This document shows positions 3,001 through 44,855 of a stretch of DNA of 46,353 nt, piece by piece; the first letter of the stretch is position 1; every line of letters starts with the position of its first letter. A model generated the notes under the pieces. That model was not told the DNA's origin, did not search any database, and was given only the letters and a program-made list of their open reading frames with translations. The stretch is from a virus (lineage: Duplodnaviria > Caudoviricetes), in IMG/VR virus record IMGVR_UViG_3300031965_000053, positions 1-46,353 of that record. One strand, written 5' to 3'. The position numbers and the translations under genes were made by a program.

Positions 3001-6000
3001 TGCTTTACTGCCGTGAGATGGCCGTCGACTGCCTTCCGCCACGTCTTTGCCCACTTGCCGGGGTCTGTGCTCTGCGCGAGTCGATCCCGCAAGCTCCAAC
3101 CGGACGAGAACCCCCCGGATTGAGAGTAGAGAAGCTCGAGGTCCGCGACGTCGAGCTCTTCCATGAGGCCCGGCACCTTGTCCAGTTCTACCGGGTGGTC
3201 GAACGACTGGCGGCGAAGGTCCTGGGCGAGGTCGAACCAGCGCGTCTCCTTCCTCGTGACGTCCTGGAGTAGAAAATCGATTTCCGGGTGCTCCGCCGGG
3301 GTGGCCAACTGGCGTAGCACCCGAAGCTCCTCGCCTTTAATGAAGGTTCGCTGCCGCAGGTACTTCAGGGCGTCGAGTTGCTGCGTCCGTACGGTTTTTT
3401 GCAGGATACGCCAGTCGTTCACGATCGGGAGCCACTTGGCCCCGAACTCTACCAGGTCCGCCCCGACAGTCGCCGCCCCCGACTCGAGCTTTCCGAACGC
3501 GCGATCCCAGGCCTCGAAGACCGGGCGCGTGCCGGGCGTGGAGCGGAGCCATTCGCCAACTACACCGCCCTCGCGAAGCCCGAACAAGGACATCGGCACG
3601 TCCTGGAGCATATCGTCGGTGATCGGAATGTTGAGCTCCGCGAGCTGTGCGAGCCGGTCCGCGACGTTCTCGGATTCCGTCGCGATCGACGCGTAGAGCT
3701 TGGGCCCGCGCCCGCCGGTTCGCGCCCCGATCGTTTGTGCGATCGTACGGAGAGCCCCCGGTGCGTCCGGCCCCGTGACCGCCGACCAAACTTCTTGCGG
3801 CAACGAAAGCTCGTCCGAGAGCTTCGCGAGGGTGCGCCGGTCGACGCCGGCGAGATTGCGCCGCACCTCGTGTACGTGCTTTCGCAGGCTCGAGATTTTT
3901 TCTCGCCTCTTCAGGTCGTCGAGCCCCAGAAACTCGACCTCGTGGTCCTTCATTGCGGCCTCCGCCGAGGCCCGAACCTTCGTCAGGGCGTCGCGCGTGC
4001 GCTCTGGGGTGGTGTTCGTGAGAACCGTGGTCGCGGCGTCGCGGAGCCGCTGGGCGCGAGCCGGCGACCAGTGCGCCAAGTCCGATACGGCGGTGCGCAT
4101 TCGGCTGGCGGCGAGCGCGCTCCGTACGATCTCGCGCCCCGGGACGTTCTGAGAGAAATCTGCAACGGCCTTCCCCAGTGCCCGGACCGGCCCAAGGGCC
4201 GCCCCAAGGACAACGCCCTCGACCACCTCCTGCGCAACGAGTTCCGAGGGATTTGACATCGCGGTCTCGAGGGAGTCGCGCATTCCCGCTCCGAACACGG
4301 CCCAAGCGACCCGCAGGCTGGCGCGGAAGTGATCGCCCGACCAAAAGCCGGAGCTGGAGCGCGCGCGAATGGCGTCGGCCGACATGTCGGACACGTCTTG
4401 CCCCGTGGGGAGCGGGCTTTTTTCCAGCACCCGAACGCGCTCCTCCTCGCGCAGCCGTCGAGTTTCTTGCATGAAGAGTTCGGCGGTCAGAAGCGTGGGG
4501 TCCTCGCGCGCGATCCCCTGAAGCGCGGCGGCTGCGGCCAGGCCGGCGCTGGCGCCGTCGGGTAAGAATAGATGCGTTGCGGCGTCGAGGAAGCCCTCCT
4601 GGTCGGATGCTGAAATCAGCTTGCGGACCAGGTTGCGGTCCATCGTTCCGTCGGCGACCTGCTGGCGGAGCAGGCCCAGGTCGTCGCGCGAGAAGACCTC
4701 TCCAAGAACGGAGGGCGCGGGCTCGAGGCCCGACTTCTCCCGGACCACGCGTTCGAACTCGTCCTCGGGCGCGGCGAGCAGGCCGGCACGCGCCATGCGC
4801 CCGACGTCCTGCACCGCGTCTACTGCCTCCGTGACGCCCCCCATAATGGTGCTGAGGAGCTGCACCGCCGACGAATCCATGAAGGTGCGTTCGCCCACGT
4901 CGGTGCGCTGGTCGAGCTGGGAGACGCCGAGGTCCGCCTGGACGAGCTGCGGGTAGCGGTCCTCGAGCTTCTTGTCGGCCCAGCGGGTCAGGGAGAATCG
5001 AGTGTTGGGCGCACCCGCGCGCGCGAGGCGCTCCAGGTGCTGCTCGGTCAGGCGCGACACAAGCGCGGGGTGCGTGCTCTGAATCGAGGTGGCGTGGTTT
5101 TCGGCCTGCGGGGCCCCGAGCGCAGCGAACCGAGAGCGCTCTACCGCGGAAACCCACAAGCGGCGCAGGGCCCCGTCTGCGTCGTTCGCGGGGCTGTTGG
5201 CGTCCCCCGCATAGGCCTCGAACAGCCAGGCGTGTAGGTTGTGGCCCAGCTTGAAGCTGTCGGAGATGTTCCCCGCCTCCCGGTCGAACCGCTGCAACTT
5301 CTGTGCCGACAGGGCCTGGACGCGCTCCTCTGGTAGCTGTTCGGGGAACCACATCCAGTCGATCAGGCGTCGAGCGGAGCCGGCGCGGTCCGCCGAGATG
5401 TGCTTCTCGCTCTCGTCGGATCGGTCGAACGCCCACGCGGCGCGCAGCTGGAACGCCTCCTGCACGTCAAAGTCCCCGGCGCGGGCCCCTGTGACTTGCA
5501 GTCGGTTCGACAGCTCCGCCAGCCGAACGAGATCCCGGTCCTCGGGACCCTTGCCGGCGAGGCGCAGCCGGGTCATTTTCTCATTGATGACGCTGCGGGC
5601 GTCTTCGACGACACGAACCGCAAATTCCCGGGCGATCCGCGGGTGCTCGTCGGGCATCACCTCGCCCTCGGTGGAGTACAGGTTGTGGCGGTAAGCGGCC
5701 ACAAGGTCCCCAAAATCTCGAGGCGTGAGCGTGTCCACGCCCCCCAAGGCGCCTGCGAACTGCGCCGCGAGTCCGCGGGCCCGACGCTCCACGGAGGCCT
5801 CCAGGCCCGGGAACGGTCGGATCAGGCGCCCCGCAGAGGCCAGCCCGCGAACCGCCTCGGCCCCGGTGCGGGGCAGCGGGCGGTCGTCGCCCCCCAAGGC
5901 CTGGTTTTGCAGCGCAAGCTGCGCCGTGTCTCCGGGCGCACGGCCGGCGGGGAGGGCTGCCTCCTCGTCGTGGCGCGCGGTCTCGAGCAGGGAGCCCAGC

Positions 6001-9323: not shown

Positions 9324-9331
9324 TTCTCCTC

Positions 9332-19855: not shown

Positions 19856-20803
19856 CTACTGCGTGATGTTCGCGACGTACGAGGTCGCGGACCCGCCGGC
19901 CTTCGCGGTCCGGTAGGTCAGGGTGCACTGTCCGGTCTCCTGGAACCGGTTCGAGAAGCCCGCGCGCGACAGCTGCTCGAAAGTCGGCAGCTTGAACCAC
20001 GAGACCTTGAACATCTCCCGATCCAAGTAGATCACCGAGTTGCCCTGCGCGGTGACCGTCGCCGACTGCGGAACGTCCTCGCTGTACACGACGTCGACAT
20101 CCCCGAAGTCACTCGAGTGCCGCTCGACCACGAGGAGCTGCATGCGAGCAGAAGCCTCGATGTTGCGCGTGACCTTCGTCGAAAACTCCGAGATCGTGCG
20201 CTTCAGGCGCGCGCCGACGATCGCGGTGTTGATGTGCACGTCGTACTTGTTGTCCGGGAACACCTGGAGGTGGTCCACGAGAACGCGCTCGGTGTAGGTC
20301 GTGCCCGAGCTATCGGTCGTGGTGACCGTGCCCGTGAAGATGTTCAGCAGGCCCTGAAGCTGCCGCGCCGTGCCGGACGTGCCCGTGACCGCCGAGCCGC
20401 GGATGACCGCGAGCTCGATGTCGTTGAGCAGGTGCTGCATCTGCTTCGCCGCCTGGTACGAGAACGGGTCGCGCGTGTAGTGCGCCGTATCCCGCTGCTC
20501 GTCGGACACCTGCCCCCAGCGCGCGAACCGCTGGACGATGAACTGCAAGCGAACCGGCTGGGTCAGGTCCGGAGCGGTGAAGTCCGCCCCCTCCTGGACC
20601 GCATTGTGCGCGCGCGCCTCAAGCGTGTCCTCGAGCCGCTCGAAAAACAGGGCCTCGGCGGCCTCCGTCCCGAGCAGCGCCTGGACCGGGCGCCGCGCGC
20701 TGACGACGTTCACAACGTCGCCCATAACGATCTCGCGGAGCGTCTGCGCGCCCTGTCCGGGCCCGCCCGCTGCGATCTCGTCGTAAGTTACCAGAGTAGC
20801 CAT
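19856..20803 (-). CDS. Major capsid protein (SU10-type/DUF5309-like), 315 aa
   Basis: YQAAKQMQHLLNDIELAVIRG, RQLQGL and HSSDFGDV motifs; follows the scaffold; AAGGAG RBS. Confidence 0.92.
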   Translation of the reverse strand: MATLVTYDEIAAGGPGQGAQTLREIVMGDVVNVVSARRPVQALLGTEAAEALFFERLEDTLEARAHNAVQEGADFTAPDLTQPVRLQFIVQRFARWGQVSDEQRDTAHYTRDPFSYQAAKQMQHLLNDIELAVIRGSAVTGTSGTARQLQGLLNIFTGTVTTTDSSGTTYTERVLVDHLQVFPDNKYDVHINTAIVGARLKRTISEFSTKVTRNIEASARMQLLVVERHSSDFGDVDVVYSEDVPQSATVTAQGNSVIYLDREMFKVSWFKLPTFEQLSRAGFSNRFQETGQCTLTYRTAKAGGSATSYVANITQ

Positions 20804-21628: not shown

Positions 21629-21857
21629 TTTTACTCTTTCTGTGAGCGAGCGAGACTGAGTTCGTAATCACACGGCGCAGTCTGCGCAGTTCCTTGAAGC
21701 GGTCCACCAGCAGTGCGGCCTCTTGTACCGCATCCGTGGGGAGGTTTTCCATCTGTCCGAGGAGGGCGCGCTCCTCTTCATCAAGCAGGCCGGTGAGGCC
21801 GGAAAAGTCCGGGAATGTGCTAAGGCGGGCGAGGGACTCGAGGTGCCCGTTGTTCAA
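21618..21857 (-). CDS. Small helical protein between portal and scaffold, 79 aa
   Basis: TTG overlapping the portal stop (TTGA); a small gene is common at this position in podoviruses. Confidence 0.6.
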   Translation of the reverse strand: MNNGHLESLARLSTFPDFSGLTGLLDEEERALLGQMENLPTDAVQEAALLVDRFKELRRLRRVITNSVSLAHRKSKNAP

Positions 21858-23857
21858 AATTGCGGAAGCTCTGCGGAAGCCCCTCCTTGCGCCGACGCGA
21901 TCTGCGCCGCCTGCATGACGAGCTGCGCCTGCGCGGTCTGCTCCGGGGAGCGGACCACCGACTCGGCGAGCTTCGGGTCGATGAGCTGTACCCACTTCCG
22001 CAACAGCGCGGAGCGGTCGAAAATCCCACTTTGGTCTTGCAGGATCAGCGGCAAAATGCGCTCGATGTTGCCGAGGATGAACGCCCTGTTCGTGGACGAG
22101 GGCGTACCTGCCGGCTTCAAGTCGAAGTGTTTGCCGATCTCTGCCTTTCTCGCAAGGCGTGGCTTTTCGTCCCCAGTCACCCGGAAGTATTCCTCCTCGG
22201 GGCCGAGATCGAGCCAAATAGACCAGAGGTTTGACAGCGTGCGGCCGAACGCAACCTGGAACATGCGGGCATCCAGTCCGAACACGTTCGCGGCGAGCTG
22301 CGTGATCGCGTTCACCTCGGACGCGGTGCGGCGCTCTCGGCCAGCTGAAAGGTTGGTGATCGTCGCGTCGAAAGTTCCAATGTAACTTTCGGCAATTCGT
22401 TGGGTCTGGTTCTCCTCAATCAGAAGCTGGCTGAGCGGCCGCAGGTCCACCTGAACCTGCCCGAACGCGCCGCGACGGTGAACCGGGAACACGGCTCCCG
22501 GCCGCCACTGCGGCATGGTGTCGAAGTCCAACCCCGCGAGCTCGTACTCCAGCGGAGGGTTGAGGAGGAGCTGCCCCAAGTCGACGCGCATGTTGTGGTG
22601 CGAATTCATGAGGCGCTGTAGGTCGTACAGCAGCTCCGGGATTCCGCGCGACTCGATCGGGCGCTCAGCGTGGGCCTCGAACTGGTACAGCGTCACGGGC
22701 CAGCTCGTGATGCTCAAGGAAAAAGGCTGCAAGGACAGGACGGTCTTGGTGGCGGGCGCGTACCAAAGGACCACGCGGTCCTTGACGCCGTCGCCGTCCA
22801 CGTCGACTCGCGCGAATATTTCCCAAATAGAGGCGGTGGGGACGCCGGCGTCCTTGCGCGAGAGCTTGTCCAAGCCTGCGCGCTGGTTGCGCATTAGGCG
22901 GATCTGCTCCCGCAGGCCGTCGGACGTGTCGCCCGCGAGCTCGTTGCCCGCCTGCTTCTGAATGTTCTCTTGTACGGCGCGCGCCTGCTGGGGCACAAAC
23001 TTGCCGTCGCGCACCATGCGCGCAATGGCGTCGGAGGACAGGTGGTGGACGATCACGAAGAACTCGCCGTCTTGCACGTCCTGGTCCTGGTCCGCGATGA
23101 CGTTGATCGGGTCAAGCGCGATCATCTCGGGGCGGTCTTCGATCACCTCGCGGTACCGAATGCGAACGTACTCGCGCCCCTCCAGAATACCGCGGGCCGC
23201 AGCCAGCAGCTCGGGGCCCTCCGCGTCAGAGGCTACCTCGAGGGGGTACTCGGACTCCAGAACGCGCACGATTTCGTCCACCGGGTCAAACGAGCGCTGC
23301 TCCTGCTCGGCCGCCTGGCGCCGACTCTCGAGCCACTGCTGGACCGTCGGGGGGAAAAGCTCTTGCACCCGGACGGTACGGACGGTAAAGTCCGTCTCGT
23401 AACGCCAGCCCTCCCGCGTGTAGGCGTGGCCGCGACGGGCGTACAGGTCCACCAGCCTCAGGATTTCCTTGGCGGAGTTCATCTTCTCGGTGAACTTCCA
23501 GTGCCAGTACGGCTCGGCCTTTCGCGCAGCGTCATCGTCGCGCTCATCGGCGCTGGTGAACGTCGCGACCGGGGAAGCGTCAAGGACGAGCGAACTGATG
23601 CCGGGCCGGAAACGGCGCACGATGCCGTCAATCAGCGGAATGCTGATGTTGCTGGCGTCGGGCCAAGGGAACTCGCGCTTGCGGCGCGGGCCGTACTGGA
23701 GCTTGATGAGCTTCTGCTGCTTGCGCAACCAGGGCGCGTTCGCCTTGTCGGTCTGCTCGATCTGCCGCACGAGCGCCGCGACCTGCTCGAGGACGGGCGG
23801 GGTGCGCAGCTCTCCGATGGCCTGCAATCCGATCGGGTTACCCCGGGACAGTGGCAT
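21854..23857 (-). CDS. Portal protein, 667 aa
   Basis: FPWPDASNISIP, SRGIPELLYDLQRLMN, WRPGAVF and RRTASEV are P22/SU10-type portal motifs. Confidence 0.93.
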   Translation of the reverse strand: MPLSRGNPIGLQAIGELRTPPVLEQVAALVRQIEQTDKANAPWLRKQQKLIKLQYGPRRKREFPWPDASNISIPLIDGIVRRFRPGISSLVLDASPVATFTSADERDDDAARKAEPYWHWKFTEKMNSAKEILRLVDLYARRGHAYTREGWRYETDFTVRTVRVQELFPPTVQQWLESRRQAAEQEQRSFDPVDEIVRVLESEYPLEVASDAEGPELLAAARGILEGREYVRIRYREVIEDRPEMIALDPINVIADQDQDVQDGEFFVIVHHLSSDAIARMVRDGKFVPQQARAVQENIQKQAGNELAGDTSDGLREQIRLMRNQRAGLDKLSRKDAGVPTASIWEIFARVDVDGDGVKDRVVLWYAPATKTVLSLQPFSLSITSWPVTLYQFEAHAERPIESRGIPELLYDLQRLMNSHHNMRVDLGQLLLNPPLEYELAGLDFDTMPQWRPGAVFPVHRRGAFGQVQVDLRPLSQLLIEENQTQRIAESYIGTFDATITNLSAGRERRTASEVNAITQLAANVFGLDARMFQVAFGRTLSNLWSIWLDLGPEEEYFRVTGDEKPRLARKAEIGKHFDLKPAGTPSSTNRAFILGNIERILPLILQDQSGIFDRSALLRKWVQLIDPKLAESVVRSPEQTAQAQLVMQAAQIASAQGGASAELPQF

Positions 23858-24548
23858 TCACAGGCTCCTTCAGCAGGGCGAGGGTGTGGGCGTCTACCTT
23901 CCCGGAGCGAAACGCTCGACGGGCGGAGCAGAGGCGCTCTTCCCTGGTTCGGTATCCGACGTTGGTCGCAGGGGCGGACAGTCGCGCCCATTTTCCATTC
24001 AGCACAATGTGCTCGGGGGCGTGGACCATCAGGCCGCTGGCGTTGAAGCCGGCCCCGAGGCCGGGCTGGCAGCGCCAGACGAAGTGTCGGACGTGTTCCG
24101 GAATACTGGGGTTGGTTTCCTGGTCTTCTGTGGGGAAAGCCGAAGCAAGAAGCGTGCCATCGAGGTCGTCGGGCCAGTCTCGCAACAGGGCCGCGACCTC
24201 CGAAACCAGAGCGGGCGACAGGATCTCGTCATCCTCCAACAGTACCCCGAAGTCGGGCTCGGTCGGGAAGCGGGCGCGGGACCAGTGTGCCGCGAGGTCC
24301 TCCATGAAGTGCTCTCCGGTCTCGTCGACCAGCGGGCGCAAGGCGGACAGGGCGCACCATTCTCCGAGCCGCGAAAGGGCTGCGCCGGCGCGATGACGAA
24401 GCGCTTTCGCCGAGCGGTCGAACTGCACGACCACTCGTAGGCGAACTGCCTCGCGCAGCGCCGATAGGGCTTGCTCAATGTATTGCAGGCAGTCGTCGCG
24501 CGCGTGCAAGCGCAGCAGAACGGCGAGCAGTGGGCGGGCTTTGCTCAT
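23838..24548 (-). CDS. GT-A fold glycosyltransferase-like protein, 236 aa
   Basis: VVVQFDRS and FGVLLEDDEIL resemble the GT2 DxD region; late VHAP..NVGY motif. Confidence 0.6.
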   Translation of the reverse strand: MSKARPLLAVLLRLHARDDCLQYIEQALSALREAVRLRVVVQFDRSAKALRHRAGAALSRLGEWCALSALRPLVDETGEHFMEDLAAHWSRARFPTEPDFGVLLEDDEILSPALVSEVAALLRDWPDDLDGTLLASAFPTEDQETNPSIPEHVRHFVWRCQPGLGAGFNASGLMVHAPEHIVLNGKWARLSAPATNVGYRTREERLCSARRAFRSGKVDAHTLALLKEPVNATVPG

Positions 24549-25407: not shown

Positions 25408-25706
25408 GGCCGCACCGCAGACTTGCGAACAGCCGCCGCCGCGCGCCGGCGGTTCCACTCCGCGAACCCCGCAGCCAGCAGGCCCGCGATGCCGATGACG
25501 GCTCCGGGAACGCTCGTCGGGGGGTTCTCCACCAACTTGGCGCCCTGCTCCGCGGCCACATCGAGGGCGTCGCCGAGGGGGCTGCCGACTACGACAGGCG
25601 CAGTCTCGCCAGGGCCAGGTGGAAGGATGTCGGGCTCCAGCGCCGCGCACCCGGAAACGAGTGCGAGGGCCAGCGCAACGAAAACGACGCGGGGTACAGC
25701 GCTCAT
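25404..25706 (-). CDS. Lipoprotein with C-terminal transmembrane helix, 100 aa
   Basis: Signal peptide with lipobox VSGC; C-terminal GAVIGIAGLLAAGFA followed by RRR. Confidence 0.7.
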   Translation of the reverse strand: MSAVPRVVFVALALALVSGCAALEPDILPPGPGETAPVVVGSPLGDALDVAAEQGAKLVENPPTSVPGAVIGIAGLLAAGFAEWNRRRAAAAVRKSAVRP

Positions 25707-27319
25707 AGGTCCGCCAAATCGTAGTTGTTCTCAACACGGAGGGAGTCAGAACGGGCAGCCCCCCACACATTACCGTTCGCAAACCCCGTCGGCTCGGCCG
25801 GCAAAACGAGGTAACGGAGGGTGTCGATGGGGTCCTTGAAGGCTTCGAGGGTCTTTTCGTCCAGGACGGCATCGTCGCGCGCCTGCGGGGGCACGAAGGA
25901 GTAGTTCTGCATGGCCTCAATCAGGTTGCGGCAGTTGCGGCAGATCAGCAGACGGGGCGGGACCAGAACCTCGCCGGTGTGCGGGTCCCGTTCGGTGCGC
26001 AGCAGGTCGCGCACCCGCACAATTCCCGTCTCGATGCGCCCGGACCCGTCAATATCGGGCGAGAAGTACATGCGGTAGCGCGCGAAATTTTCGATCACAG
26101 ACGTGAGGCGGCGCCCTTGAACGCTGTACTCGGCCGGCCCGAATTTCGGGTCGATGAACCGCTGCCGGACGCGCCGATCGCCCTCGGACGCCACGATCAT
26201 CGAAACGTAGTCCACGATGCCGTAGGACGAGGAGCGCATTTTGATGTAGGACTCGCGGGGCCATTCGTCGTAAATTATCCAGGTACGACGAACGGGGTCG
26301 AAGGCGCCCCACAGGAAGAAGAACGGGCGGCGGTTCGCGGGGTCGCAGGCGAGCCGCGCGGGCCAGTGGAGCGGCGGCTTGATCGGGTCGATGATGTGCG
26401 CCGCGGGGTCGAACGTCGGGAAGGCGCGGTGCGTCAGGAACCCCCAGCGCCCGAACTTGCGGGCCTCGAGCTCCTCCTGTGAAAACTCGATCGTGTCCTC
26501 GAAGCCCTCGAGCGCGGCCTCCATGAGGTGGGGGTTCTCGGACTGCGCGCCCGAAACCGCGCGCACGTCGCGCCGCTGCCCGGAGACGAATTCCTTGTAG
26601 ACCCAGGGCGCGTGGGCGCCGAGTGGGGTAAAGCCCATGACGAAGCGGCCGAATTGGTCGATGAGGCCGCGCCAGCACGCCGTGAAGACTGCCCGGGAAG
26701 GCGGCTCGTCGAAGATCACGAGCGAGTAGGCGTCGCCCTCGAAGGCCATGCTGCCCTGCTCAATTGAACCGAAACGCGAGACGGAGCCGTACTCGTCGGT
26801 GCAGTGGATGGGGGTGGAGCCGGGGCCGCGCCGGACCGACAGGCGCGAGCGCGCAGCAGCGGGGCACGCGTGCTCGAACTTCGGCCAGTAGATCGCGCCG
26901 ATTCCGCGGTCCATCGTCAGGCCGCTGACCACCAGAATGTTAGCGGGATGTGCGGTGGGAAGATCGTCGGGGCGCCGCGTCCAGGCCTCGACGGGGATCT
27001 GGTCTCGGTGGGGGTAGTATCCCGTATCCGTGAGAACGCGCAGTTCGGGCGGAACGAGGTGGGGCCAGTAGCCGAGGAGGTGGGACCAGTGGATGTAGGC
27101 GTTCCACCAGGTCTTGCCCCAGCGGTTCCCCGCGATCGCTAACACCCCGCGTACATCGGGCTGGCGGAGCGCGTTGATGCCCTCGAGCTGTCCGCGGTGG
27201 GGCTCGGCGTAAAAGAGCGGGGCCGCGGTGCGACGGCGGCGCTGCTCCCGAATCGCGGAGTATTTGGTCTCGAGGGAGAGGCGGGTTTCGCGCGCTTGGC
27301 TTTCGCTCACAGGTGCCAC
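25703..27319 (-). CDS. terL: Terminase large subunit, 538 aa
   Basis: Walker A AGNRWGKT, Walker B LVIFDEPP, motif III GFTP, ENPHL, nuclease residues ACDPA, FIDP and DPIDTLRY. Confidence 0.96.
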   Translation of the reverse strand: MAPVSESQARETRLSLETKYSAIREQRRRRTAAPLFYAEPHRGQLEGINALRQPDVRGVLAIAGNRWGKTWWNAYIHWSHLLGYWPHLVPPELRVLTDTGYYPHRDQIPVEAWTRRPDDLPTAHPANILVVSGLTMDRGIGAIYWPKFEHACPAAARSRLSVRRGPGSTPIHCTDEYGSVSRFGSIEQGSMAFEGDAYSLVIFDEPPSRAVFTACWRGLIDQFGRFVMGFTPLGAHAPWVYKEFVSGQRRDVRAVSGAQSENPHLMEAALEGFEDTIEFSQEELEARKFGRWGFLTHRAFPTFDPAAHIIDPIKPPLHWPARLACDPANRRPFFFLWGAFDPVRRTWIIYDEWPRESYIKMRSSSYGIVDYVSMIVASEGDRRVRQRFIDPKFGPAEYSVQGRRLTSVIENFARYRMYFSPDIDGSGRIETGIVRVRDLLRTERDPHTGEVLVPPRLLICRNCRNLIEAMQNYSFVPPQARDDAVLDEKTLEAFKDPIDTLRYLVLPAEPTGFANGNVWGAARSDSLRVENNYDLADL

Positions 27320-28156: not shown

Positions 28157-28741
28157 TCACGTCCGCGACTCCGCCTCGACCAGGCGTTCGAGGTCCGCGT
28201 CCGAGAGCTTCGTGACGTCGATCGCACCGGGCTGGTGCGCGTGCAGGTGCAGGTGCGTGGCCGCCAATTTGTCGAACCGCTCCATCAAAAGTCGGGCCGC
28301 GGGCACGTTGCCCCCCAGGGCGCGCGCGAGCATGGAGGCGTGGACCAGCCCGATGGTCTGCCGGACCGCGTGCGTCAGCTCTCGGCTGATCCAGGCCGCG
28401 CGCACCGGGTCGCGCAGGCGCTTGCTGACCGTGGGCGCGCTGACCTCCACCGATTCTGCCACGGCTTTCCCGCTCACGCAACCCAAAAGCATCGCCTGGA
28501 CCATTTGCACGTCGAGGTCGTCGGGCACGAAGGCCCGCACGTCGTCCTCGCGCGCGCGCACGGCACGGTCCGCCAGACCCAGAACCAGCGCGCTCGGGGC
28601 GCTGCGCACCGGCTCCTTTGGGGCGGGCGGGGGCGGCAGGGCTGTGGCGTCGGGGCCCGTGCCCTCGCGCACCTTGGGCGGGCGTCCGCGGCCTCGGCGG
28701 GGCGCGGGCGGGTCGGGGATTTCGCTTGCTTCGGTGGTCAC
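28157..28741 (-). CDS. terS: Terminase small subunit (putative), 194 aa
   Basis: AT-hook RGRGRPPK, HTH-like segment (GKAVAESVEVSAPTVSKRL), GNVPAARLLME and DVTKLSDADL; upstream of terL. Confidence 0.75.
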   Translation of the reverse strand: MTTEASEIPDPPAPRRGRGRPPKVREGTGPDATALPPPPAPKEPVRSAPSALVLGLADRAVRAREDDVRAFVPDDLDVQMVQAMLLGCVSGKAVAESVEVSAPTVSKRLRDPVRAAWISRELTHAVRQTIGLVHASMLARALGGNVPAARLLMERFDKLAATHLHLHAHQPGAIDVTKLSDADLERLVEAESRT

Positions 28742-29124
28742 TATCTGCTACCCTTGCTGCTGAGGAATTGGAGCTCGTACACCGAGCCGTTCGCCCGCAG
28801 CCCGAGCTTAATTGCGCGGTTGTGGCGCGGGCGATGCCGGAGCACGAGCACGGTCTCGGCCGTGAGTCGAGCGTCTTCGCCACCGGGCAGCAGGCAGTAG
28901 CGCCACTCGGCGACCTGCGGGGCCCAGGGCTTGTCGGCATGCTGTTTTACCCGGAGCAGCACGTGCCCGCTCTGCCCGACGTACAGGGCCCGGCAGTCCG
29001 CGTCGAGGGCGACGTACAGTCCGGGACCGTCGATTATGGGACGTGTGGCCGTGAAGTTCGAAAGAGAGAAGCTGAAAAGGTCTGTGGGCGGAAGTGAAGT
29101 TCCGCTTGAGGTTGTTGCGGGCAA
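28741..29124 (-). CDS. GIY-YIG nuclease (start uncertain)
   Basis: GLYVALD..LYVGQS..LRVKQH..AETVL..PRHN; stop overlaps the terS start. Confidence 0.85.
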   Translation of the reverse strand: MPATTSSGTSLPPTDLFSFSLSNFTATRPIIDGPGLYVALDADCRALYVGQSGHVLLRVKQHADKPWAPQVAEWRYCLLPGGEDARLTAETVLVLRHRPRHNRAIKLGLRANGSVYELQFLSSKGSR

Positions 29125-29329
29125 GGACGATACCTCCTACAATGAGCTCTTGTTGGATGTGGAAAGCGGGCTCGAAAAGCTGCGCGCTGCTCGAGGGGAG
29201 CGTGTGGTCCGAGCAGTGCGGAGGGTGCTGGAGGGCGAGTCCAAGGCCGCTGTTTGTGCCGCTTCGGGCATGTCGCACCACACACTATTGAGCGCGCTGG
29301 CCTATTTGCGGAGGTTTTTGGATGCTTGA
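29036..29329 (+). CDS. HTH protein resembling sigma-factor region 4
   Basis: DVESGLEKL..VRRVLEGESKAAVCAASGMSHHTLLSALAYLR; GGAGG in its 3' end serves the next gene. Start uncertain. Confidence 0.6.
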   Translation: MGRVAVKFEREKLKRSVGGSEVPLEVVAGKDDTSYNELLLDVESGLEKLRAARGERVVRAVRRVLEGESKAAVCAASGMSHHTLLSALAYLRRFLDA

Positions 29330-29678
29330 CCTTTGGAAACTCCTTACGCGCATGCAAGTGACGTACAACCGGACGTACGAGGGGCACCGGCCGCGTGTGC
29401 AATTGGTAGTCCGCTTCGGCTCCTACAACCAAGCGACGTGCGCAGCCCGGACCGTAGGCTGTGGGCGTGTGCGGGACGGCTCGTGGATCATCGAAGGGCA
29501 ATCGCTCATCGACGCATTCGAGGCGCTTGGGTGCAAAGACTCGGTACTTCTTGACGCTTGCCGAGGTCTCGAGTCGGAGCTCGCCGCACAAGCGCCGCTC
29601 GAGAAGGTTCGTGACTGGAGTACGCGAGTTTGGGTGGCGTACAACAAGGCGACTCGAGATCCCGATTCCGCGCCTTGA
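29322..29678 (+). CDS. Hypothetical protein, possibly a degenerate LAGLIDADG-like fold, 118 aa
   Basis: GGAGG RBS; RPRVQLVVRF..VGCGRV..SWIIEGQSLIDAFEAL. Confidence 0.55.
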   Translation: MLDLWKLLTRMQVTYNRTYEGHRPRVQLVVRFGSYNQATCAARTVGCGRVRDGSWIIEGQSLIDAFEALGCKDSVLLDACRGLESELAAQAPLEKVRDWSTRVWVAYNKATRDPDSAP

Positions 29679-29743
29679 GAGATTTGGGGCGTTCCCCTGC
29701 ACATCAATTATGCAGTCTGAGAGGGTGCCCCGCCCCACCCCCC

Positions 29744-29885
29744 TGCAAAACGCATGCCACCCCCCCGGCACGCCCCTTGCTACGCAACGGGCCAGCAAGC
29801 CCCATGCCAAAGCAGGCCCAGCAATTCCCATACCGAACGGTATGGCACGGCGATTGCAGGGAGCGGGACGGGCACGGAGGTTGCA
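29744..29885. promoter_or_regulatory. Cluster of six sigma54 (RpoN)-type -24/-12 boxes on both strands
   Basis: Plus: CGGCACGCCCCTTGCT 29766, TGGCACGGCGATTGCA 29843, GGGCACGGAGGTTGCA 29870. Minus: TGGCATGCGTTTTGCA 29744-59, TGGCATGGGGCTTGCT 29794-809, CGGTATGGGAATTGCT 29820-35. Confidence 0.8.
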
Positions 29886-30102
29886 GTAGGGGGGCGGGGC
29901 CGACGCGTAGCGTGGTGGGGGTCAAAAAGTCGTAAAAATTACGATTCCTGGCCGTGGTGGTAGGTAGGGGGTGATTCGCGCCCTTCTGACGATTTTCGTC
30001 GGTCTCGACACAAAGTGACACCACGTCGCGTCACTTTTCCCGATCGACGGGCCGCTAACCCGCATTCTACTGTTCGGCACGGGGGTTGATGCGTTTACCG
30101 GC

Positions 30103-30309
30103 ATGTGCGACACACAGAACACCGCTACGATACGCCGCGCAATCCGGGACGCGATCGACTTGCGCGATTCCGGCACGGTCGACTTGTCGGGCTTCCCGAT
30201 AGACGACGTCCTCGCGGTGCTCGCTGCGGAAAGCGACGACATGGTCCGCGCAAGCGGGGTTGACGAAGACGGCCAGTATGTTGTATACATACTGTATAAA
30301 GGAGCCTGA
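30103..30309 (+). CDS. Small acidic early protein, 68 aa
   Basis: First ORF after the non-coding region; no clear RBS. Confidence 0.5.
   Translation: MCDTQNTATIRRAIRDAIDLRDSGTVDLSGFPIDDVLAVLAAESDDMVRASGVDEDGQYVVYILYKGA
30274..30294. promoter_or_regulatory. Operator-like palindrome overlapping a possible sigma70 promoter
   Basis: CAGTATGT-N5-ACATACTG; TTGACG at 30260 with TATACA 18 bp downstream; AAGGAG RBS follows. Confidence 0.45.
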
Positions 30310-30310
30310 C

Positions 30311-30631
30311 ATGACCCGCAAAGACTTCCTCGCGTTGACGATTACTCGCCTCAAGGCGCAGACGGACTCCGGACTCTACCCGTCGTGTTACCTTCGCGCA
30401 CCAAACGGCTACTGTTGTGCCGTCGGAGTCCATACTCCGGAGTACAATGGCAACGGCAATTTCGATTTCTGGGCTCGTGCCATCTCGAATGAGCATGGCG
30501 TTTCGGCCTACTTCGTGAAATCAATAGCCGCGGCGCACGACGATTATGTCTGCGCTAACCCCCGGGTGCGGCCCGAGGAGTACAACTGGGACACGGCATT
30601 CGAAACGATCGATTGTGGCGCCGCATGGTAA
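30311..30631 (+). CDS. Early hypothetical protein (paralog A), 106 aa
   Basis: AAGGAG RBS; FLALTITRL..RAPNGYCCAVGVH..AAAHD. Confidence 0.8.
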   Translation: MTRKDFLALTITRLKAQTDSGLYPSCYLRAPNGYCCAVGVHTPEYNGNGNFDFWARAISNEHGVSAYFVKSIAAAHDDYVCANPRVRPEEYNWDTAFETIDCGAAW

Positions 30632-30642
30632 GGAACACGAGC

Positions 30643-30927
30643 ATGACACCGAACGAATTCCTCGATTTGACGATTACCCGCCTCGACGCGCAAGGGTCGC
30701 TGGAGCGAAGCTCAGAAATGCGCGCCCAGAACGGGTACCGCTGCGCGCTCGGAGTACATTTCGAGGATGGCACGACATTCGAGAAAGCCTTTGACATACT
30801 GTCAGAAAGGCACAGCCTTCCGCGCTGGTTCCTGGCGGACGTCGCGTCCGCGCACGATTGCGCGATAAACTGCGGGTCGCATCGTTCTTGGGTCTCAGTG
30901 TTCAAACACCTTAGGAGCAAGAAATGA
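30643..30927 (+). CDS. Early hypothetical protein (paralog B), 94 aa
   Basis: AAGGA RBS; FLDLTITRL..RAQNGYRCALGVH..ASAHD. Confidence 0.8.
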   Translation: MTPNEFLDLTITRLDAQGSLERSSEMRAQNGYRCALGVHFEDGTTFEKAFDILSERHSLPRWFLADVASAHDCAINCGSHRSWVSVFKHLRSKK

Positions 30928-31280
30928 GCAAATCTTGGCCTTGGATCGACCCTCCGCGCAACGATCGCGACCGTGCCTTTGGCGAATGGCGAGTCTCGCT
31001 TGCTGGCCGAGAAGTGTCCCATGGCACGCTCCGGGACCAAGATTTGGCCGACGCGTTCGCAAGCGTGCTGCGGGAAAAGCCGGAAGGGCACGATACGTGC
31101 AACTGGCGCTTGTTGCGGAGCCTTGAGGAACGGGATTTCGAAAAGGAAGACAACGGCACGATTCTTGAGGAAGCATTCGACGAACTCGAGTCTCTGGCAC
31201 CGCCCGGCTACTACTTCGGCGCCCACGAAGGCGACGGCTCGTGCTTCGGATTCTGGCCGATTGAAGGAGAGCAAGAATGA
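30924..31280 (+). CDS. Conserved phage hypothetical protein, 118 aa
   Basis: AGGAG RBS; SHGTLRDQDL and C-terminal APPGYYFGAHEGDGSCFGFW, a motif I recognise from phage hypothetical proteins. Confidence 0.8.
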   Translation: MSKSWPWIDPPRNDRDRAFGEWRVSLAGREVSHGTLRDQDLADAFASVLREKPEGHDTCNWRLLRSLEERDFEKEDNGTILEEAFDELESLAPPGYYFGAHEGDGSCFGFWPIEGEQE

Positions 31281-32065
31281 ACCGCCAAAAAATCGCCGAA
31301 TGGGCACGGGCCCGCGGCTTGCACACTCGCCCCGAATTCCGGACCGTCTTCGACCTAATAGCCAGCGGCGCAAAACCTAAGCTGCTCACAAGCTCGGTGA
31401 AAACCCGGAAGGGCGAGAAATACGGAATTTTGACCGGCATTCAGTACCTGGCACCCGCGAGCGAAAGCGGAATCCAGGTTTGCCCTTGGCATTCGGCCGG
31501 GTGCGCAAGCGCCTGCCTTGGGCATTCGTCCGGCCGGATGCGCATTCCCGCCCACAAGGTTTCGCGCATACTGCGAACTTGGTGGGCCTTCGGCGATCGG
31601 CCCAGTTATCGTCAGGTCCTTCTCGCCGAACTACAGGCGATTGTGCGCCGCGGGAAGAAGCACGACATGGCGGTATTCGTCCGCCTGAATGGCACGTCCG
31701 ACTTGCCGATCGATTTTTTCCTGCCCGAAAAGGAACGGGCACAGTTCAAGCACACAATCCGCTTCTACGATTACACAAAGTACGCTATACGTGCCGAATA
31801 TCCCCCCGCGGACGTCCACTATACGTTCTCGCGATCCGAAACGACATGCGACGACACGTGCCGGCGCCTGCTCTCGGCCGGCCGCAACGTCGCCGTCGTT
31901 TTCGCCGGGCCGCTTCCCGAAACATACCTCGGGTTCCGGGTCGAAGACGGTGACGACAGCGACGCGCGGCCGTCCGACGCGCGCGGTGTCGTGATCGGAT
32001 TGTCGCCCAAGGGCCCATTGGCGAAGCGCGACATGAGCGGTTTCGTCGTTCGAACAGGAGCATAG
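31277..32065 (+). CDS. GP88-like protein (radical-SAM-like Cys motif), 262 aa
   Basis: CPWHSAGCASAC, VRLNGTSD, FYDYTK, TFSRSE, NVAVVF and DGDDSDAR..GVVIGL motifs. Confidence 0.85.
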   Translation: MNRQKIAEWARARGLHTRPEFRTVFDLIASGAKPKLLTSSVKTRKGEKYGILTGIQYLAPASESGIQVCPWHSAGCASACLGHSSGRMRIPAHKVSRILRTWWAFGDRPSYRQVLLAELQAIVRRGKKHDMAVFVRLNGTSDLPIDFFLPEKERAQFKHTIRFYDYTKYAIRAEYPPADVHYTFSRSETTCDDTCRRLLSAGRNVAVVFAGPLPETYLGFRVEDGDDSDARPSDARGVVIGLSPKGPLAKRDMSGFVVRTGA

Positions 32066-32245: not shown

Positions 32246-32286
32246 TCTGTCGTTCGTTCCCCCAACCCACTTTCCGGAGAAACGTA

Positions 32287-33048
32287 ATGTTTACGATACT
32301 GCCGAAGCACGGAAAATTCCGCTTGATAGAATCGAACCAGCTGCGCGGCATACCCGTTCCTACCCGCGAAGCGGTTGGTGCGGGACGGCGCTGGGAGCCT
32401 ATCCAGCACGGCGCCTTGGTCAACGCACTACGGTGCCGGCTTGACCGGCATTTCGGCGAACCGGGCCGCGAACAGTTTTGCATTTCGAACGACGGTGCGG
32501 AATGCATAGGCGCCTTCCAATTCTCGGGACCGAATCTCGACGTCCGCGTCCCGGGCGGAACCGCGTTCGCGGTAGGATTTTCGCACGCGAACGACCGGTC
32601 TCGGGCGCTTCGCTTGGCGCTTGGATACCGCGTTCTCGTCTGCTCTAACGGCGTTACCGCCGCGTATGGGAACGCGGCGACGAACGCTCGCCACCTGCAC
32701 GTTCGGGGCGCCGGAAACCTCGAGGATCAGGTCAACGATTTGGTCGACCGATACCTCGCGCAGCTGGACAAGGTTGCCGACAGCGTAGAAGACTTGGCGC
32801 ACCGCGAGTTGTCCAACACCGAGAGCGAACGCCTGTTCGTGCAGCTGGGGCGCCGCAACGTGCTGTCCTGGAAGCACGTCGGAAATGCTGTCGAGGACTG
32901 GTACACCCCGCGGCACGCGGAATTCTCGCCACGGACCGCGTGGTCCTGGTACAATTGCGTAAATGAGCAGACGAAGAGTCTGCCAGTGGCGCGACAGCCG
33001 ATCGTACAGCACGCCGCGTTCCGGCTCGTGTCGGCCGACTTGAATTAA
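32287..33048 (+). CDS. DUF932-family protein, 253 aa
   Basis: GGAG RBS; WEPIQH, SHANDRS..LGYRVLVCSNG and TAWSWYNCVNE motifs. Confidence 0.85.
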   Translation: MFTILPKHGKFRLIESNQLRGIPVPTREAVGAGRRWEPIQHGALVNALRCRLDRHFGEPGREQFCISNDGAECIGAFQFSGPNLDVRVPGGTAFAVGFSHANDRSRALRLALGYRVLVCSNGVTAAYGNAATNARHLHVRGAGNLEDQVNDLVDRYLAQLDKVADSVEDLAHRELSNTESERLFVQLGRRNVLSWKHVGNAVEDWYTPRHAEFSPRTAWSWYNCVNEQTKSLPVARQPIVQHAAFRLVSADLN

Positions 33049-33101: not shown

Positions 33102-33311
33102 ATGGACACGAAAGAAGAACTCGAGGCTTTCCGAAGGACCCTGGAAAACCGGTCCTTGTACTCGTTACTTCATACGTGGCGCTTTTCCCCACCCGGAGAA
33201 AACGAAGAGCTTAGGGGCGACAAAGGCGAAATTTTCGGCAAGGTTTTGTTTGCCAAGCGAGACGCCAACCAGGACGAATGGGTCGCAGCGAGCAAGCGCT
33301 TGGGGTGGTAG
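33102..33311 (+). CDS. Hypothetical protein, 69 aa
   Basis: AAGGAG RBS; LLHTWRFSPPG..AASKRLGW. Confidence 0.8.
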   Translation: MDTKEELEAFRRTLENRSLYSLLHTWRFSPPGENEELRGDKGEIFGKVLFAKRDANQDEWVAASKRLGW

Positions 33312-33319
33312 GAAAGTCA

Positions 33320-34312
33320 ATGCAACCACGCATTTCCAAAACGGCAATCCGTCAAGCGGCACGCGAAGCCTTGGGTAAGACGGACTGGCCTATCGCGTGC
33401 TACATTATGGACCGAGCCCGCGAACTATCCGGGCTTCCGGCGATCGACGATAACCCGCAACCGGACGAATTGCATGGCGGCCCGCATGGGCAGCTGGCCG
33501 AACTACTGAGCTCGTGTTCGCCGGGTGTCGCGGAATTGTTGTCCGTCGCGGATATCGGCGACGACGGCACCCTGATAATCGGCGAGAATCGAATTGACAG
33601 AATCAACCTTTCCGGAGCGCGTTTGAACGACGTGTCGTTTCGCGACGCGCGGCTATATGGCGCGAAGTTTGCGCGTGCAAACTTGCGACGGGCGGTTTTC
33701 TGTCACGCGAGACTGGCGGACTCGGTGTTTGACGGCGCGGCATTGAATAACGCAAGGTTCGACGGCGCCCTCCTGCGTCGTGCTTCGCTCGCGCATACTA
33801 CGCTCATTTGGTCGACTTTTCTCGACGCGGACCTAACCGGAGCCTCGTTTTTAGAGGCGTCGCTTTACAACGCGGCGCTTGACCGGGCTGTGATAGACGG
33901 GGCTACGCTCGACGGCGCCACGTTCAACCTGGCGTCGCTCGCCGGGGCGTCGCTGCGGCGTGCGTCGCTCGTCAATGCGTCGTTCAGAAAAGCAAATCTC
34001 GAAGACGCAGCGCTTAGCCTGGCGTACCTCCACAAAACGCAATTCCTTGGGGCACGGCTCACGCGCACGGTGTTCGTCAGCGCCGGCGCCACCAAGGCGA
34101 GGTTCGACGGGGCGTCGCTCGACGGCGCCGACTTCTCTGGCGCATGGCTCGACGGGGCGACGTTCGACGGGGCGTCGCTCGACGGCGCGAAGTTCGAAGG
34201 GGCATCGCTCAAGGGAGCCCGGTTCCCCGCGAACTACGACAGCTTGCTATCCTGCGAACAACTTGAGTCGTGCACCTTGGTAGACCTTCATAGGACGAAA
34301 AAACAACAATGA
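33320..34312 (+). CDS. Pentapeptide-repeat protein 1 (~42 repeats), 330 aa
   Basis: Pentapeptide repeats (GARLN, RANLR, GASLD...); N-domain and C-cap shared with the next two genes. Confidence 0.9.
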   Translation: MQPRISKTAIRQAAREALGKTDWPIACYIMDRARELSGLPAIDDNPQPDELHGGPHGQLAELLSSCSPGVAELLSVADIGDDGTLIIGENRIDRINLSGARLNDVSFRDARLYGAKFARANLRRAVFCHARLADSVFDGAALNNARFDGALLRRASLAHTTLIWSTFLDADLTGASFLEASLYNAALDRAVIDGATLDGATFNLASLAGASLRRASLVNASFRKANLEDAALSLAYLHKTQFLGARLTRTVFVSAGATKARFDGASLDGADFSGAWLDGATFDGASLDGAKFEGASLKGARFPANYDSLLSCEQLESCTLVDLHRTKKQQ

Positions 34313-34857
34313 CGACCCCGCTCATTTCCGCCGACATCATCATCGGTGCGGCTCGCGCCGCGATCGCCGATCCGACGTACGACCAGCGAGTTTGGGCGCC
34401 GCCTGCCGAGTGCGCGACCGCGTGCTGCGTGCTCGGGCGCGCGCGCGCACTCGCCGGCGTGGAGCAGATCAACGGCGCGCCGCAGCCCGGCGAGATCCCC
34501 GGCGGGCCGGACGGCCCACTCGGACGGCTGCTGCGATGTCAGTCGCCCGGCGTCGCGCGCCTCCTCGGCCAGTGCGATGCCGACGCGATGTCCGACGGCG
34601 GGCGGATCGTCGCCGACGGCGCGTCGCTCCGCGGCGCGACGCTCCGCGGCGCGAAGCTCGACGGAGCGTCGCTCGTCGACGCGTCGCTCCGCAGAGCGTC
34701 GCTCGTCGGCGCGACGCTCCGCGGCGCGTTGCTCGACTTCGCGGACCTCGACGGCGCGGACCTCCGCGGCGCGGACATCCGTGGCGCGCGCTACCCCCGC
34801 GCGTACGCGGACCTGCTCGACGACGCGCAGCGCGCCGCGTGCATGCTCGTCGACTGA
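34309..34857 (+). CDS. Pentapeptide-repeat protein 2 (12 repeats), 182 aa
   Basis: GASLR GATLR GAKLD...; 15-bp periodic DNA; ATGA overlap. Confidence 0.9.
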   Translation: MTTPLISADIIIGAARAAIADPTYDQRVWAPPAECATACCVLGRARALAGVEQINGAPQPGEIPGGPDGPLGRLLRCQSPGVARLLGQCDADAMSDGGRIVADGASLRGATLRGAKLDGASLVDASLRRASLVGATLRGALLDFADLDGADLRGADIRGARYPRAYADLLDDAQRAACMLVD

Positions 34858-34907
34858 CCCTCCCCCCGCGCCGGCGCAACCCACCAACACGATCAGGAGA
34901 GACGACG

Positions 34908-35603
34908 ATGTCCACGACCATCTCCGCCGACATCATCATCGGTGCGGCGCGCGCCTCGGTCGGTTACTTCGCATACTGCACAGCCTACTTTCGGCATTTG
35001 TGGGCCCAGCGGCCGGCCGAAAGCGTACTGAGCCGCGCCCGCGCGCTCGTCGGTATAGAGCCGACCCGCGACGGACCGCTGCCCGGCGAGGTTCCGGGCG
35101 GGCCGGATGGGCCGCTGGGGCTGCTACTCCGCGGCGCGGTTCCGGGAATAGCACAACTGCTCGCGCAATGCGACGCGGACGCGCTGTCCAACGGCGGCCG
35201 AATCGTCGCCGACGGCGCGGTTATGGACGGCGCGGTGCTGGATCGTGCGTCGCTGTGCGGGGCGTCGCTCAGTTGCGCATCGCTCCACGGGGCGTCGCTC
35301 CGCGGGACGTTGCTCAACGGCGCACAGCTGCACGGCACGGCGTTCAACGGTGCGCGGCTCAACGGCGCACGGCTCGACGTCGCAACCCTGGACGACGCCT
35401 CTTTCTGCGGGGCGACTCTCGACTTGGCAACCTTTAACGGCGCCTACCTCGACAACACTACGTTTGACGGGGCCTCACTCGTCGGCGCCGAGTTCGACGT
35501 GGTGTCACTCTGCGATGTATCGCTTCGAGGGGCCCGGTTCCCACGGACATACGCGCACCTGCTCGACGGCTACCAACGTGCTATGTGCACACTGGTAGAC
35601 TGA
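34908..35603 (+). CDS. Pentapeptide-repeat protein 3 (22 repeats), 231 aa
   Basis: AGGAG RBS, ATG 34908 (MSTTISADIIIGAARA). Confidence 0.9.
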   Translation: MSTTISADIIIGAARASVGYFAYCTAYFRHLWAQRPAESVLSRARALVGIEPTRDGPLPGEVPGGPDGPLGLLLRGAVPGIAQLLAQCDADALSNGGRIVADGAVMDGAVLDRASLCGASLSCASLHGASLRGTLLNGAQLHGTAFNGARLNGARLDVATLDDASFCGATLDLATFNGAYLDNTTFDGASLVGAEFDVVSLCDVSLRGARFPRTYAHLLDGYQRAMCTLVD

Positions 35604-35793: not shown

Positions 35794-35912
35794 TGCGTTA
35801 CCTTTCCCGCGGCAAGCGCAAGGGGTGGGCGCTTGTCGAGCTCGGGTGGCAGTGCAAGAAACGTGCCGTGCCCCCGCAGGCCCTGAGACTCAGAAAGTCC
35901 AACCCCCAGTGA
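35730..35912 (+). CDS. Small SH3/Tudor-like beta protein, 60 aa
   Basis: AAGGA RBS; VWAWF..EWRPAKVV..WALVEL..AVPPQALRLR. Confidence 0.55.
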   Translation: MLEPNSPVWAWFASEWRPAKVVRYLSRGKRKGWALVELGWQCKKRAVPPQALRLRKSNPQ

Positions 35913-38134: not shown

Positions 38135-38471
38135 TATGAACGAACGGGACGGGAATGTGGAGAGCGTGAACGCCTTCGGTGGACGGCAGTCCGAGATACC
38201 CTGTCGATTCGACCTCATTCCGGCGTGCGCACTGCACGAGGTAGCCAAGGTGCTCAAAGAGGCCGCCAAGAAGTACGGCGAGGGCAACTGGCGAAGGATC
38301 ACGCTTGAAGATCACCTCTCGCACGCACTTCGGCACGGCTACAGGGCCTGCGAAGCACACCGAACCGGAAGCGAAGACCCGCGCGGAGACCTTGTTAGGC
38401 TGGCTTGCCGAGCCTTGCTGGCCTTAGAAATCGGCTTGGTGGGGTTTGAGTTCGGGGATGAAAATGTTTAA
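38121..38471 (+). CDS. dATP/dGTP diphosphohydrolase-like protein (DUF5664), 116 aa
   Basis: GAGGAG RBS; RFDLIP..ALHEVAKVL..AAKKYGEGNW..HALRH..LACRAL. Confidence 0.88.
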   Translation: MSEYDMNERDGNVESVNAFGGRQSEIPCRFDLIPACALHEVAKVLKEAAKKYGEGNWRRITLEDHLSHALRHGYRACEAHRTGSEDPRGDLVRLACRALLALEIGLVGFEFGDENV

Positions 38472-44522: not shown

Positions 44523-44855
44523 ATGGCCGAAAACGACGACCGCAGTGCGCGAGAGGTGCGTAACCTTCATGTGCGCGTAGATCAAATCGAGGCGAAACTG
44601 AACCGACTTGCCGGACTATGGAACACGACGAAGGACAGAAACACAGAAGCGTGCAATCGGGCGTTGTCTGCGCACGCTGTAGTCAATTTGCTTCTGGGGC
44701 TCGGGGCGCTGGAGCGCGACCAGGCTGGCTCAGTCTGTGCGTCTCAGCGGCTTCTGAATCTGCTGTCACTCGACTTGTCGGATCACTTCACGCAGGCTGG
44801 TGGGCTCCGTCGCAGCACGGCGCAAGCCAAGAGCTCAGAGAAGAAATCGCCGTAA
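44523..44855 (+). CDS. Hypothetical coiled-coil protein, 110 aa
   Basis: GAGG RBS; overlaps the start of the DegT frame. Confidence 0.6.
   Translation: MAENDDRSAREVRNLHVRVDQIEAKLNRLAGLWNTTKDRNTEACNRALSAHAVVNLLLGLGALERDQAGSVCASQRLLNLLSLDLSDHFTQAGGLRRSTAQAKSSEKKSP

Follow-up and report, generated by a model that had tools for sequence, protein, structure and literature searches.

What function could a dense cluster of sigma54 (RpoN)-type -24/-12 boxes serve in the non-coding DNA of a phage? Such a cluster, comprising six boxes, is found in the window analysed here (the whole stretch of 46,353 nucleotides), which is an IMG/VR virus record of a podophage with SU10-type capsid and portal proteins, a large terminase and a family A DNA polymerase. 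The window is probably near complete, because a complete relative of 47.8 kb, G116, has genes mapping along it from 69 to 46293; the CheckV completeness of 37 % is doubtful given this mapping. The array of boxes sits between the packaging block and small early-type genes, the positions of which are as follows.

19856..20803, - strand: major capsid protein, SU10 type (PF17236, E 1e-40)
21854..23857, - strand: portal, SU10 type
25703..27319, - strand: large terminase (phrog_2, E 3e-12)
28157..28741, - strand: helix-turn-helix protein, likely the small terminase judging from its position and HTH look-alikes (PF13022-type clusters, score 0.94)
30103..32065, + strand: first small early-type genes, the last of which is a GP88-family gene (31277-32065)

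The start of terL lies 2.4 kb from the array and the gene is directed away from it, while the product of 28157..28741 also matches phrog_12540, a PHROG without known function. Neither a PF00158 activator nor an RpoN DNA-binding domain was found in the window record, so that the preliminary description was right in reporting no AAA+ sigma54 activator, and no RNA polymerase was detected among the 65 window ORFs scanned. ORF 28931-29329 was considered as a sigma factor and rejected, having a weak ECF-sigma/HTH-like end (E 0.002), no homologues and a negative codon score; it overlaps a GIY-YIG-like gene in antisense. Other features of the phage include three tandem pentapeptide-repeat genes sharing an N-terminal segment in the early region (33278-35603), two small paralogous early genes about 330 bp apart (30311-30927), and genes encoding a glycosyltransferase-TPR protein (14864-17371), a dATP/dGTP diphosphohydrolase (38100-38471), an epimerase-like protein (41895-42677) and a DegT aminotransferase (44618-45718), which possibly constitute a DNA or virion glycosylation set.

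The array, its surroundings and the additional boxes of the window are listed below.

29679..30102, no strand: gene-free gap of about 420 bp containing the array
29727..29743, + strand: C-rich run immediately left of box 1, G-rich in the terS-ward reading
29744..29759, - strand: sigma54-type box 1, TGGCATGCGTTTTGCA
29766..29781, + strand: sigma54-type box 2, CGGCACGCCCCTTGCT, back-to-back with box 1 (gap 6 bp)
29794..29809, - strand: sigma54-type box 3, TGGCATGGGGCTTGCT, face-to-face with box 2 (gap 12 bp)
29820..29835, - strand: sigma54-type box 4, CGGTATGGGAATTGCT, tandem with box 3 (gap 10 bp)
29843..29858, + strand: sigma54-type box 5, TGGCACGGCGATTGCA, back-to-back with box 4 (gap 7 bp)
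29870..29885, + strand: sigma54-type box 6, GGGCACGGAGGTTGCA, first base G, tandem with box 5 (gap 11 bp)
29828..29845, no strand: 8-bp perfect inverted repeat CCATACCG-AA-CGGTATGG, overlapping boxes 4 and 5
29886..29902, + strand: G-rich run following box 6, the counterpart of the C-run on the left
24144..24159, - strand: isolated box without mismatches, within an ORF and some 290 bp upstream of the start of the portal gene
35853..35868, - strand: isolated box, antisense in the early region, with a one-mismatch box at 35668
5293..5308, - strand: isolated box

The six 16-mers of the preliminary description, three per strand and the sixth beginning with G, were thus all recovered, as were both of its back-to-back pairs (boxes 1/2 and boxes 4/5). 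The inverted repeat is perfect, as had been described, but it is not centred on the second pair, its centre (29836.5) lying 2.5 bp left of the pair midpoint (29839); its right arm is a copy of the first 8 bases of box 4. The array had also been placed near a strand switch. The switch itself is found some 400-600 bp further left, since the array and the - strand packaging genes are separated by at least one small ORF on the + strand (29322-29678). Flanked by the C-run on the left and the G-run on the right, the array is roughly symmetric. To its right, an A+T-rich tract (29916-29950), which has an 18-bp inverted match at 32279-32296, and small palindromes (29995-30040) were noted.

The pattern YGGYAY-N5-TTGCW matches the window eight times, compared with 0.19 matches expected, and eight matches were reached in none of 100 shuffles; with the first base freed, there are nine matches, six of them inside 150 bp. 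Shuffled controls, which the preliminary description had called for, bore out the clustering, with a maximum of one box per 150 bp in 300 shuffles versus six boxes in 142 bp, and at most one box in 5000 shuffles of the local 500 bp. These counts rule out chance. Coding sequence was excluded as well, and the description of this DNA as non-coding confirmed, by the codon model, which scored the five array-spanning ORFs at -0.12 to -0.26 and 12 confident genes at +0.03 to +0.28. An assembly artefact was rejected on the basis of a Logan contig from a soil metagenome, possibly the source sample, that covers the array with zero differences. The array has no match in Rfam and its folding as a whole is no better than that of shuffles (z -1.2), and a hairpin, cruciform or structured RNA was rejected given these results and the non-complementary arms.

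Do the boxes follow a rule that would disclose what binds them? Arrays of at least four boxes numbered 166, of which 77 were retained after the removal of shared 18-mers, related families remaining among them. The consensus of 421 boxes in these dereplicated arrays is tTGGCAYR-n4-TTGCWW, in which positions 7-8, 0 and 17 had been left free in the search. As had been claimed from the window alone, the boxes fit the sigma54 consensus (TGGCAC-N5-TTGCW, with -24 GG and -12 GC at 10-bp spacing), and they agree with Vibrio RpoN sites: the RpoN consensus reported for V. parahaemolyticus matches that of the arrays, and purified RpoN shifted flgB and fliE probes (PMC9817140).

The distances between boxes are constrained too. 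Gaps between back-to-back boxes measure 5-10 bp in 84 of 140 cases, 15-21 bp in 38 and 25-29 bp in 12, with none at 0-4 bp and one at 11-14 bp, though the seed allowed 2-30 bp. Face-to-face gaps measure 1-6 bp in 132 of 153 cases and tandem gaps 9-13 bp in 26 of 51; periods between boxes on one strand are commonest at 41-43 and 52-54 bp. In inverted neighbours, 1.08 of 4 variable spacer positions are complementary, versus 1.26 when shuffled. The spacing and the non-complementary spacers match adjacent proteins bound in helical phase along duplex DNA rather than hairpins. The window array follows the same rule, and only its face-to-face gap (12 bp) lies one helical turn above the mode. Judging from footprints, boxes placed face to face would exclude each other as holoenzymes. 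In the window, boxes 2-5 aim into other boxes, which leaves boxes 1 and 6 as the only outward-facing ones, each directed at a G-rich run. The earlier view that the array is too crowded for six independent promoters was supported.

Such arrays are a recurring phage element, present in hundreds of phage sequences and almost never in bacterial chromosomes. The back-to-back pair pattern was found in 126 IMG/VR stretches in 12 of the 64 parts of the collection (about 700 extrapolated to all), whereas its complemented control yielded 18 stretches in the whole collection; 57 of the 126 pair loci, redundant records counted, are clusters of at least four boxes. A three-box pattern was found in 121 IMG/VR stretches in 28 of 64 parts (about 280 extrapolated), and a tighter box pattern in about 470 metagenome stretches. 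Among 185,579 prokaryotic genomes of GTDB, the three-box pattern has 13 matches, mostly on short MAG contigs, several of which carry phage genes; two (L155 and L157) are apparently chromosomal, with three boxes. These matches are labelled as Bacteroidota, Deltaproteobacteria, Desulfovibrionaceae, Gemmatimonadota, Nitrospira, Planctomycetales and Gammaproteobacteria, although binning may be wrong, and RpoN is present in 10 of the 13 genomes. A search of plasmids with the array found nothing. The G+C content of array-bearing loci ranges from 31 % to 65 %, which runs against the suggestion of the preliminary description that the array points to a GC-rich host. Several larger phage records (L013, L030/L031, L034-L036, L067 and L342) contain several separate arrays or box pairs repeated over kilobases, and one array-bearing record encodes an N4-like RNA polymerase (L245:7764-9395).

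The presence of the array varies between relatives. The expectation that it would recur in other phage contigs held for hundreds of phage sequences and failed for the three nearest relatives of the window phage (capsid 52-56 % and TerL 39-46 % identical), in which no array was found: G118 (92 % complete) and the fragment G117 contain zero boxes, and G116 contains scattered boxes only, one of them beside a G-run, with single boxes at the junction. A TerL search for close relatives of the window phage returned none. The array is also absent from 18 of 19 annotated phages checked, including seven other Zobellviridae, so that conservation among phages that share a packaging motor was not observed, and the array is therefore not an obligatory part of any packaging motor. 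Its patchy occurrence fits dependence on the host. BLAST searches of cultured phages with the window array and with the arrays of L032, L156, L153 and L154 gave chance matches only; the array of L068 led to Vibrio phage VpV262 at E=9, where a box scan then confirmed an array. Phage YuA, which is said to carry sigma54 sites, has no match to the strict box pattern. In Pseudomonas phage PA11 (42939-43066; L302:1440-1567), two boxes 112 bp apart follow a C-rich run in a gene-poor stretch.

The location of the arrays associates them with packaging genes. A TerL gene was detected at E<1e-10 in 51 of 80 flanked loci, being directed away from the array in 50 and lying within 2.5 kb in 44; these 51 proteins form 17 clusters at 60 % identity, a single cluster accounting for 26 of the loci. 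PHROGs added six TerL loci, all directed away (43 ORFs in 25 of the remaining loci were scanned), which brings the total to 57 of 80 loci with a terminase, 56 of them directed away from the array; in a metagenome sample of 75 loci, 13 of 13 TerL genes were directed away. The same location and orientation would, nonetheless, be expected of any non-coding element in the gap upstream of terS, because the non-coding DNA of a phage is often concentrated there, and the array may just use free space. There are exceptions, such as Alteromonas phage V22, in which five boxes with one 2-bp face-to-face pair (69888-70263; L326:3889-4264) occupy a 1.6-kb gap with convergent genes on either side, 22 kb from terL, and the arrays of L008 and L042, which adjoin the downstream side of helicase or primase genes. 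Among 43 dereplicated loci, 22 lie between divergent gene blocks and 21 do not.

Several observations relate the arrays to genome ends. In VpV262 (NC_003907.2; L166:173-346), six unannotated sigma54-type boxes occupy nt 173-346, and the first of them begins 35 bp inward of the annotated left terminal repeat (1-138), at the early-gene end. Of 18 terminase lineages, 10 have a G-rich run flanking the array towards terS, and none has one towards the early genes. C-runs open the annotated left ends of RIO-1 and ICBM1, as at 29727-29743 of the window, where the run is likely the hallmark of a physical left end. Among 43 contigs of at least 15 kb, 10 have an end no more than 1 kb away from the array (2.5 expected), and among metagenome contigs 15 of 75 have one within 100 bp (5.1 expected); these ends fall on either side of the array and may be assembly breaks. 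Three contigs (L223, L227 and L236) begin at the array and then run into terL. The preliminary description had suggested that the array lies on first-injected DNA, which agrees with its position being equivalent to the known left end of VpV262; that the genome end of the window phage lies here as well is likely by this analogy.

One array belongs to a satellite-like element rather than to a phage. In a Desulfovibrionaceae MAG that has RpoN (G044:C235; L329:6819-12753), a 5.9-kb integrated satellite-like element is flanked by 19-bp direct repeats and encodes a P4-type integrase, an AlpA-like protein, a GIY-YIG protein, an AAA_25 RepA-like protein and two ORFs without assignment, and no capsid gene. 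At the 3' end of its sole operon lie 11 boxes that obey the same spacing rule (gaps of 7, 2, 7, 2, 7, 25, 2, 19, 3 and 6 bp). No gene follows the boxes in the integrated state, and the array therefore has the appearance of a cis-acting element used in packaging or replication. The small ORF preceding it was not identified as TerS or a terminase subunit. The element is the single such case, no further array-bearing satellites occurring among 151 loci, and the box pair is absent from 60 relatives of its host. On this contig, the flgB gene of the host is preceded by one perfect box (4379, - strand). The element resembles the PICMI satellites described in PMC10803314 in its size of about 6 kb, integrase, AlpA-like protein, replication gene, short direct repeats and lack of capsid genes. 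It differs from them in belonging to Desulfovibrionaceae and in not lying beside fis, and its mobility is putative; the account of the PICMI satellites (PMC10803314) leaves their packaging signals unassigned.

What, then, occupies the boxes? The binder is very probably host RpoN, either free or with core polymerase, because the motif is constant across unrelated terminases and across G+C contents from 31 % to 65 %, and a phage protein common to array-bearing records was not detected. With most of nine other array-bearing records, neither the window nor VpV262 has any protein in common (BLASTP E<=1e-4), and a shared phage binder was rejected at BLASTP sensitivity. No PF00158 activator scored above the cut-off in the 43 array- or pair-bearing records, 12 of which are at least 90 % complete, and no RpoN domain did so in the same 43; a phage-encoded sigma54 or activator was thus rejected, the sole PF00158 trace being a sub-cut-off match in G006. 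Sigma54 has also been reported to bind DNA without core in vitro (PMC4591121).

It is highly improbable that the boxes are instead a cruciform, or binding sites of a phage-encoded protein (TerS, for example), with only a resemblance to sigma54 boxes. Repeats beside terminal sites are typical of terminase signals, and the R1-R3 repeats of lambda and the short repeats of T7 are such signals near termini. Nevertheless, one and the same motif accompanies at least 17 terminase clusters and is absent from phages with homologous terminases, most array-bearing records that were compared share no protein with the window or VpV262, and the inverted neighbours lack the complementary spacers of a cruciform. 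A replication origin, in which the phased boxes in both orientations would act like iterons and sigma54 complexes would distort the DNA or prime synthesis, is very unlikely. It would suit L008, L042 and the satellite, where helicase or primase genes precede the array, as well as the DnaA boxes found alongside some arrays (see below); most arrays, however, flank packaging genes rather than replication genes, the DNA polymerase gene of the window is 10 kb from the array, and the GC skew has no origin signature. Control of transcription, with one or two boxes acting as promoters fired by a host activator, or with sigma54 occluding early or late promoters and thereby coupling lysis to the state of the host, is in our view improbable. 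The divergent setting of about half of the loci, the lack of a sigma70-like promoter in the gap 29679-30102, the isolated perfect box upstream of the portal gene and the single boxes at the junction of G116 speak for such control; on the other hand, no activator above the cut-off is encoded in the 43 array- or pair-bearing records, although the host may supply one, the other half of the loci are not divergent, the integrated satellite array has no downstream gene, and face-to-face gaps of 1-6 bp would place each start site in the opposing box. Moreover, bound sigma54 is reported to be no roadblock to transcription in E. coli (PMC4591121).

Titration of sigma54, which the preliminary description had proposed as a decoy function, is possible yet unlikely. 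Hundreds of replicated genomes with 6-11 sites each would withdraw sigma54 and damp stress responses of the psp/chaperone type, and dense, phased packing would maximise occupancy; sigma54 binds silently at sites for which a decoy role has been proposed (PMC4591121), and an RpoN site is located at pspA in Vibrio (PMC9817140). Titration needs no fixed place, yet the arrays gather at the packaging locus, often with the G-run on the terS side, and mutually exclusive face-to-face pairs would waste sites; both the tie to this locus and the presence of an array in a small satellite would be left unexplained. The explanation ranked second, though still rather unlikely, assigns the array to the first-entering DNA, onto which host proteins would clamp, preventing back-sliding and slowing degradation; any tight-binding host protein would suffice, and sigma54 would be one choice beside Fur- or DnaA-type sites. 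In accordance with this, the VpV262 array lies just inside the early-gene end, 8 of 130 arrays have words that we take to be DnaA boxes at a distance of 300 bp or less (0.6 would be expected, and the control word gave 3 of 130), and presumed Fur-like words lie near 9 of 130 (3.5 expected; control 0). The injection-stop region of T5 (AY543070 misc_feature 9140-10149), likewise non-coding, terminal and dense in host-protein-type sites, contains six such Fur-like words and one DnaA word; in contrast to the arrays, it has no sigma54 box, even with up to two mismatches, and lies about 9 kb inside a 10-kb repeat rather than at the end, while the window array has neither a Fur-like nor a DnaA word within 300 bp. 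If the starts of L223, L227 and L236 at the array are real ends, the array would belong to the end that is packaged first and ejected last. RecBCD, in addition, strips tandem RNA polymerases from DNA (10.1101/142224), which also weakens the earlier idea that the array shields the DNA end, just as the idea that it pulls DNA in is weakened by closed complexes that do not translocate without an activator (PMC4591121). DnaA boxes were seen beside the arrays of L242, L268, L287 and L398, Fur-like words beside those of L218, L234 and L391, and six LexA-type words beside the sigma54 array of L243.

The task of the array probably concerns the DNA end and not transcription, and the explanation ranked first, which is put forward tentatively, is that host sigma54, bound without transcribing, labels the junction of genome ends for cutting by terminase or for packaging, a role absent from the preliminary description. 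The spacing suggests that several molecules may sit together on the array, with face-to-face neighbours being mutually exclusive as holoenzymes. Closed complexes of sigma54 require an activator and do not translocate without one, and because of this requirement most sites would stay closed and silent, with no RNA made. On concatemers, the bound complex could act as a landmark or bending scaffold adjoining the cut site. It would be a helper rather than an essential signal, because related phages manage without the array, and given the many terminase types, no specific contact between sigma54 and terminase is implied. It is conceivable, albeit doubtful, that unrelated phages and at least one satellite independently adopted a parked sigma54 closed complex as a landmark for terminase, satellites copying the array for packaging by the helper.

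Parts of this scheme have known counterparts. Bacterial sigma54 -24/-12 promoters and silent intragenic sites have the same consensus and GG-N10-GC spacing (PMC4591121; PMC9817140; PMC12316311), and silent occupancy by sigma54 without an activator has been described in bacteria (PMC4591121). Chromosomal sites, however, are single, whereas the phage arrays comprise 4-11 boxes in alternating orientation and helical phase, with no encoded activator and at a packaging or terminal locus. In T7, gp18/gp19 are recruited by RNA polymerase that pauses where concatemer units join (PMC3276506, with reference to Zhang and Studier 2004), and the T7/T3 pause places a stalled polymerase beside the terminal repeat, much as the VpV262 array begins 35 bp inward of the left repeat; T7 uses its own elongating polymerase together with lysozyme, while the window phage would use a host closed complex with a putative link to terminase. 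A site for a host DNA-binding protein likewise serves as a helper in the packaging locus of lambda, where IHF aids packaging at cosB (PMC9611059), although lambda has one IHF site between TerS sites with a proven role in packaging and the phage arrays have 6-11 putative sigma54 boxes. Sigma54 sites are thus known in kind, and host-factor sites at phage ends have precedents; the structural use of a sigma54 closed complex in packaging might be new in kind, which we regard as possible rather than likely. A description of such phage sigma54 arrays was not found in the literature covered, which included few subscription papers.

The arrays, which occur in hundreds of uncultured phage sequences, suggest that phages employ a host sigma factor in a way not described before, as a component of the DNA end and not of transcription. 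The occurrence of the array in a cultured phage, VpV262, together with the exact spacing rule, makes binding and function directly testable. An rpoN deletion strain has been published, and rpoN mutants may lack the phage receptor (PMC11877940). If the proposed role is true, the array would be a sequence marker of genome ends and of RpoN-positive hosts in metagenomic phages, as well as a candidate packaging signal of minimal satellites.
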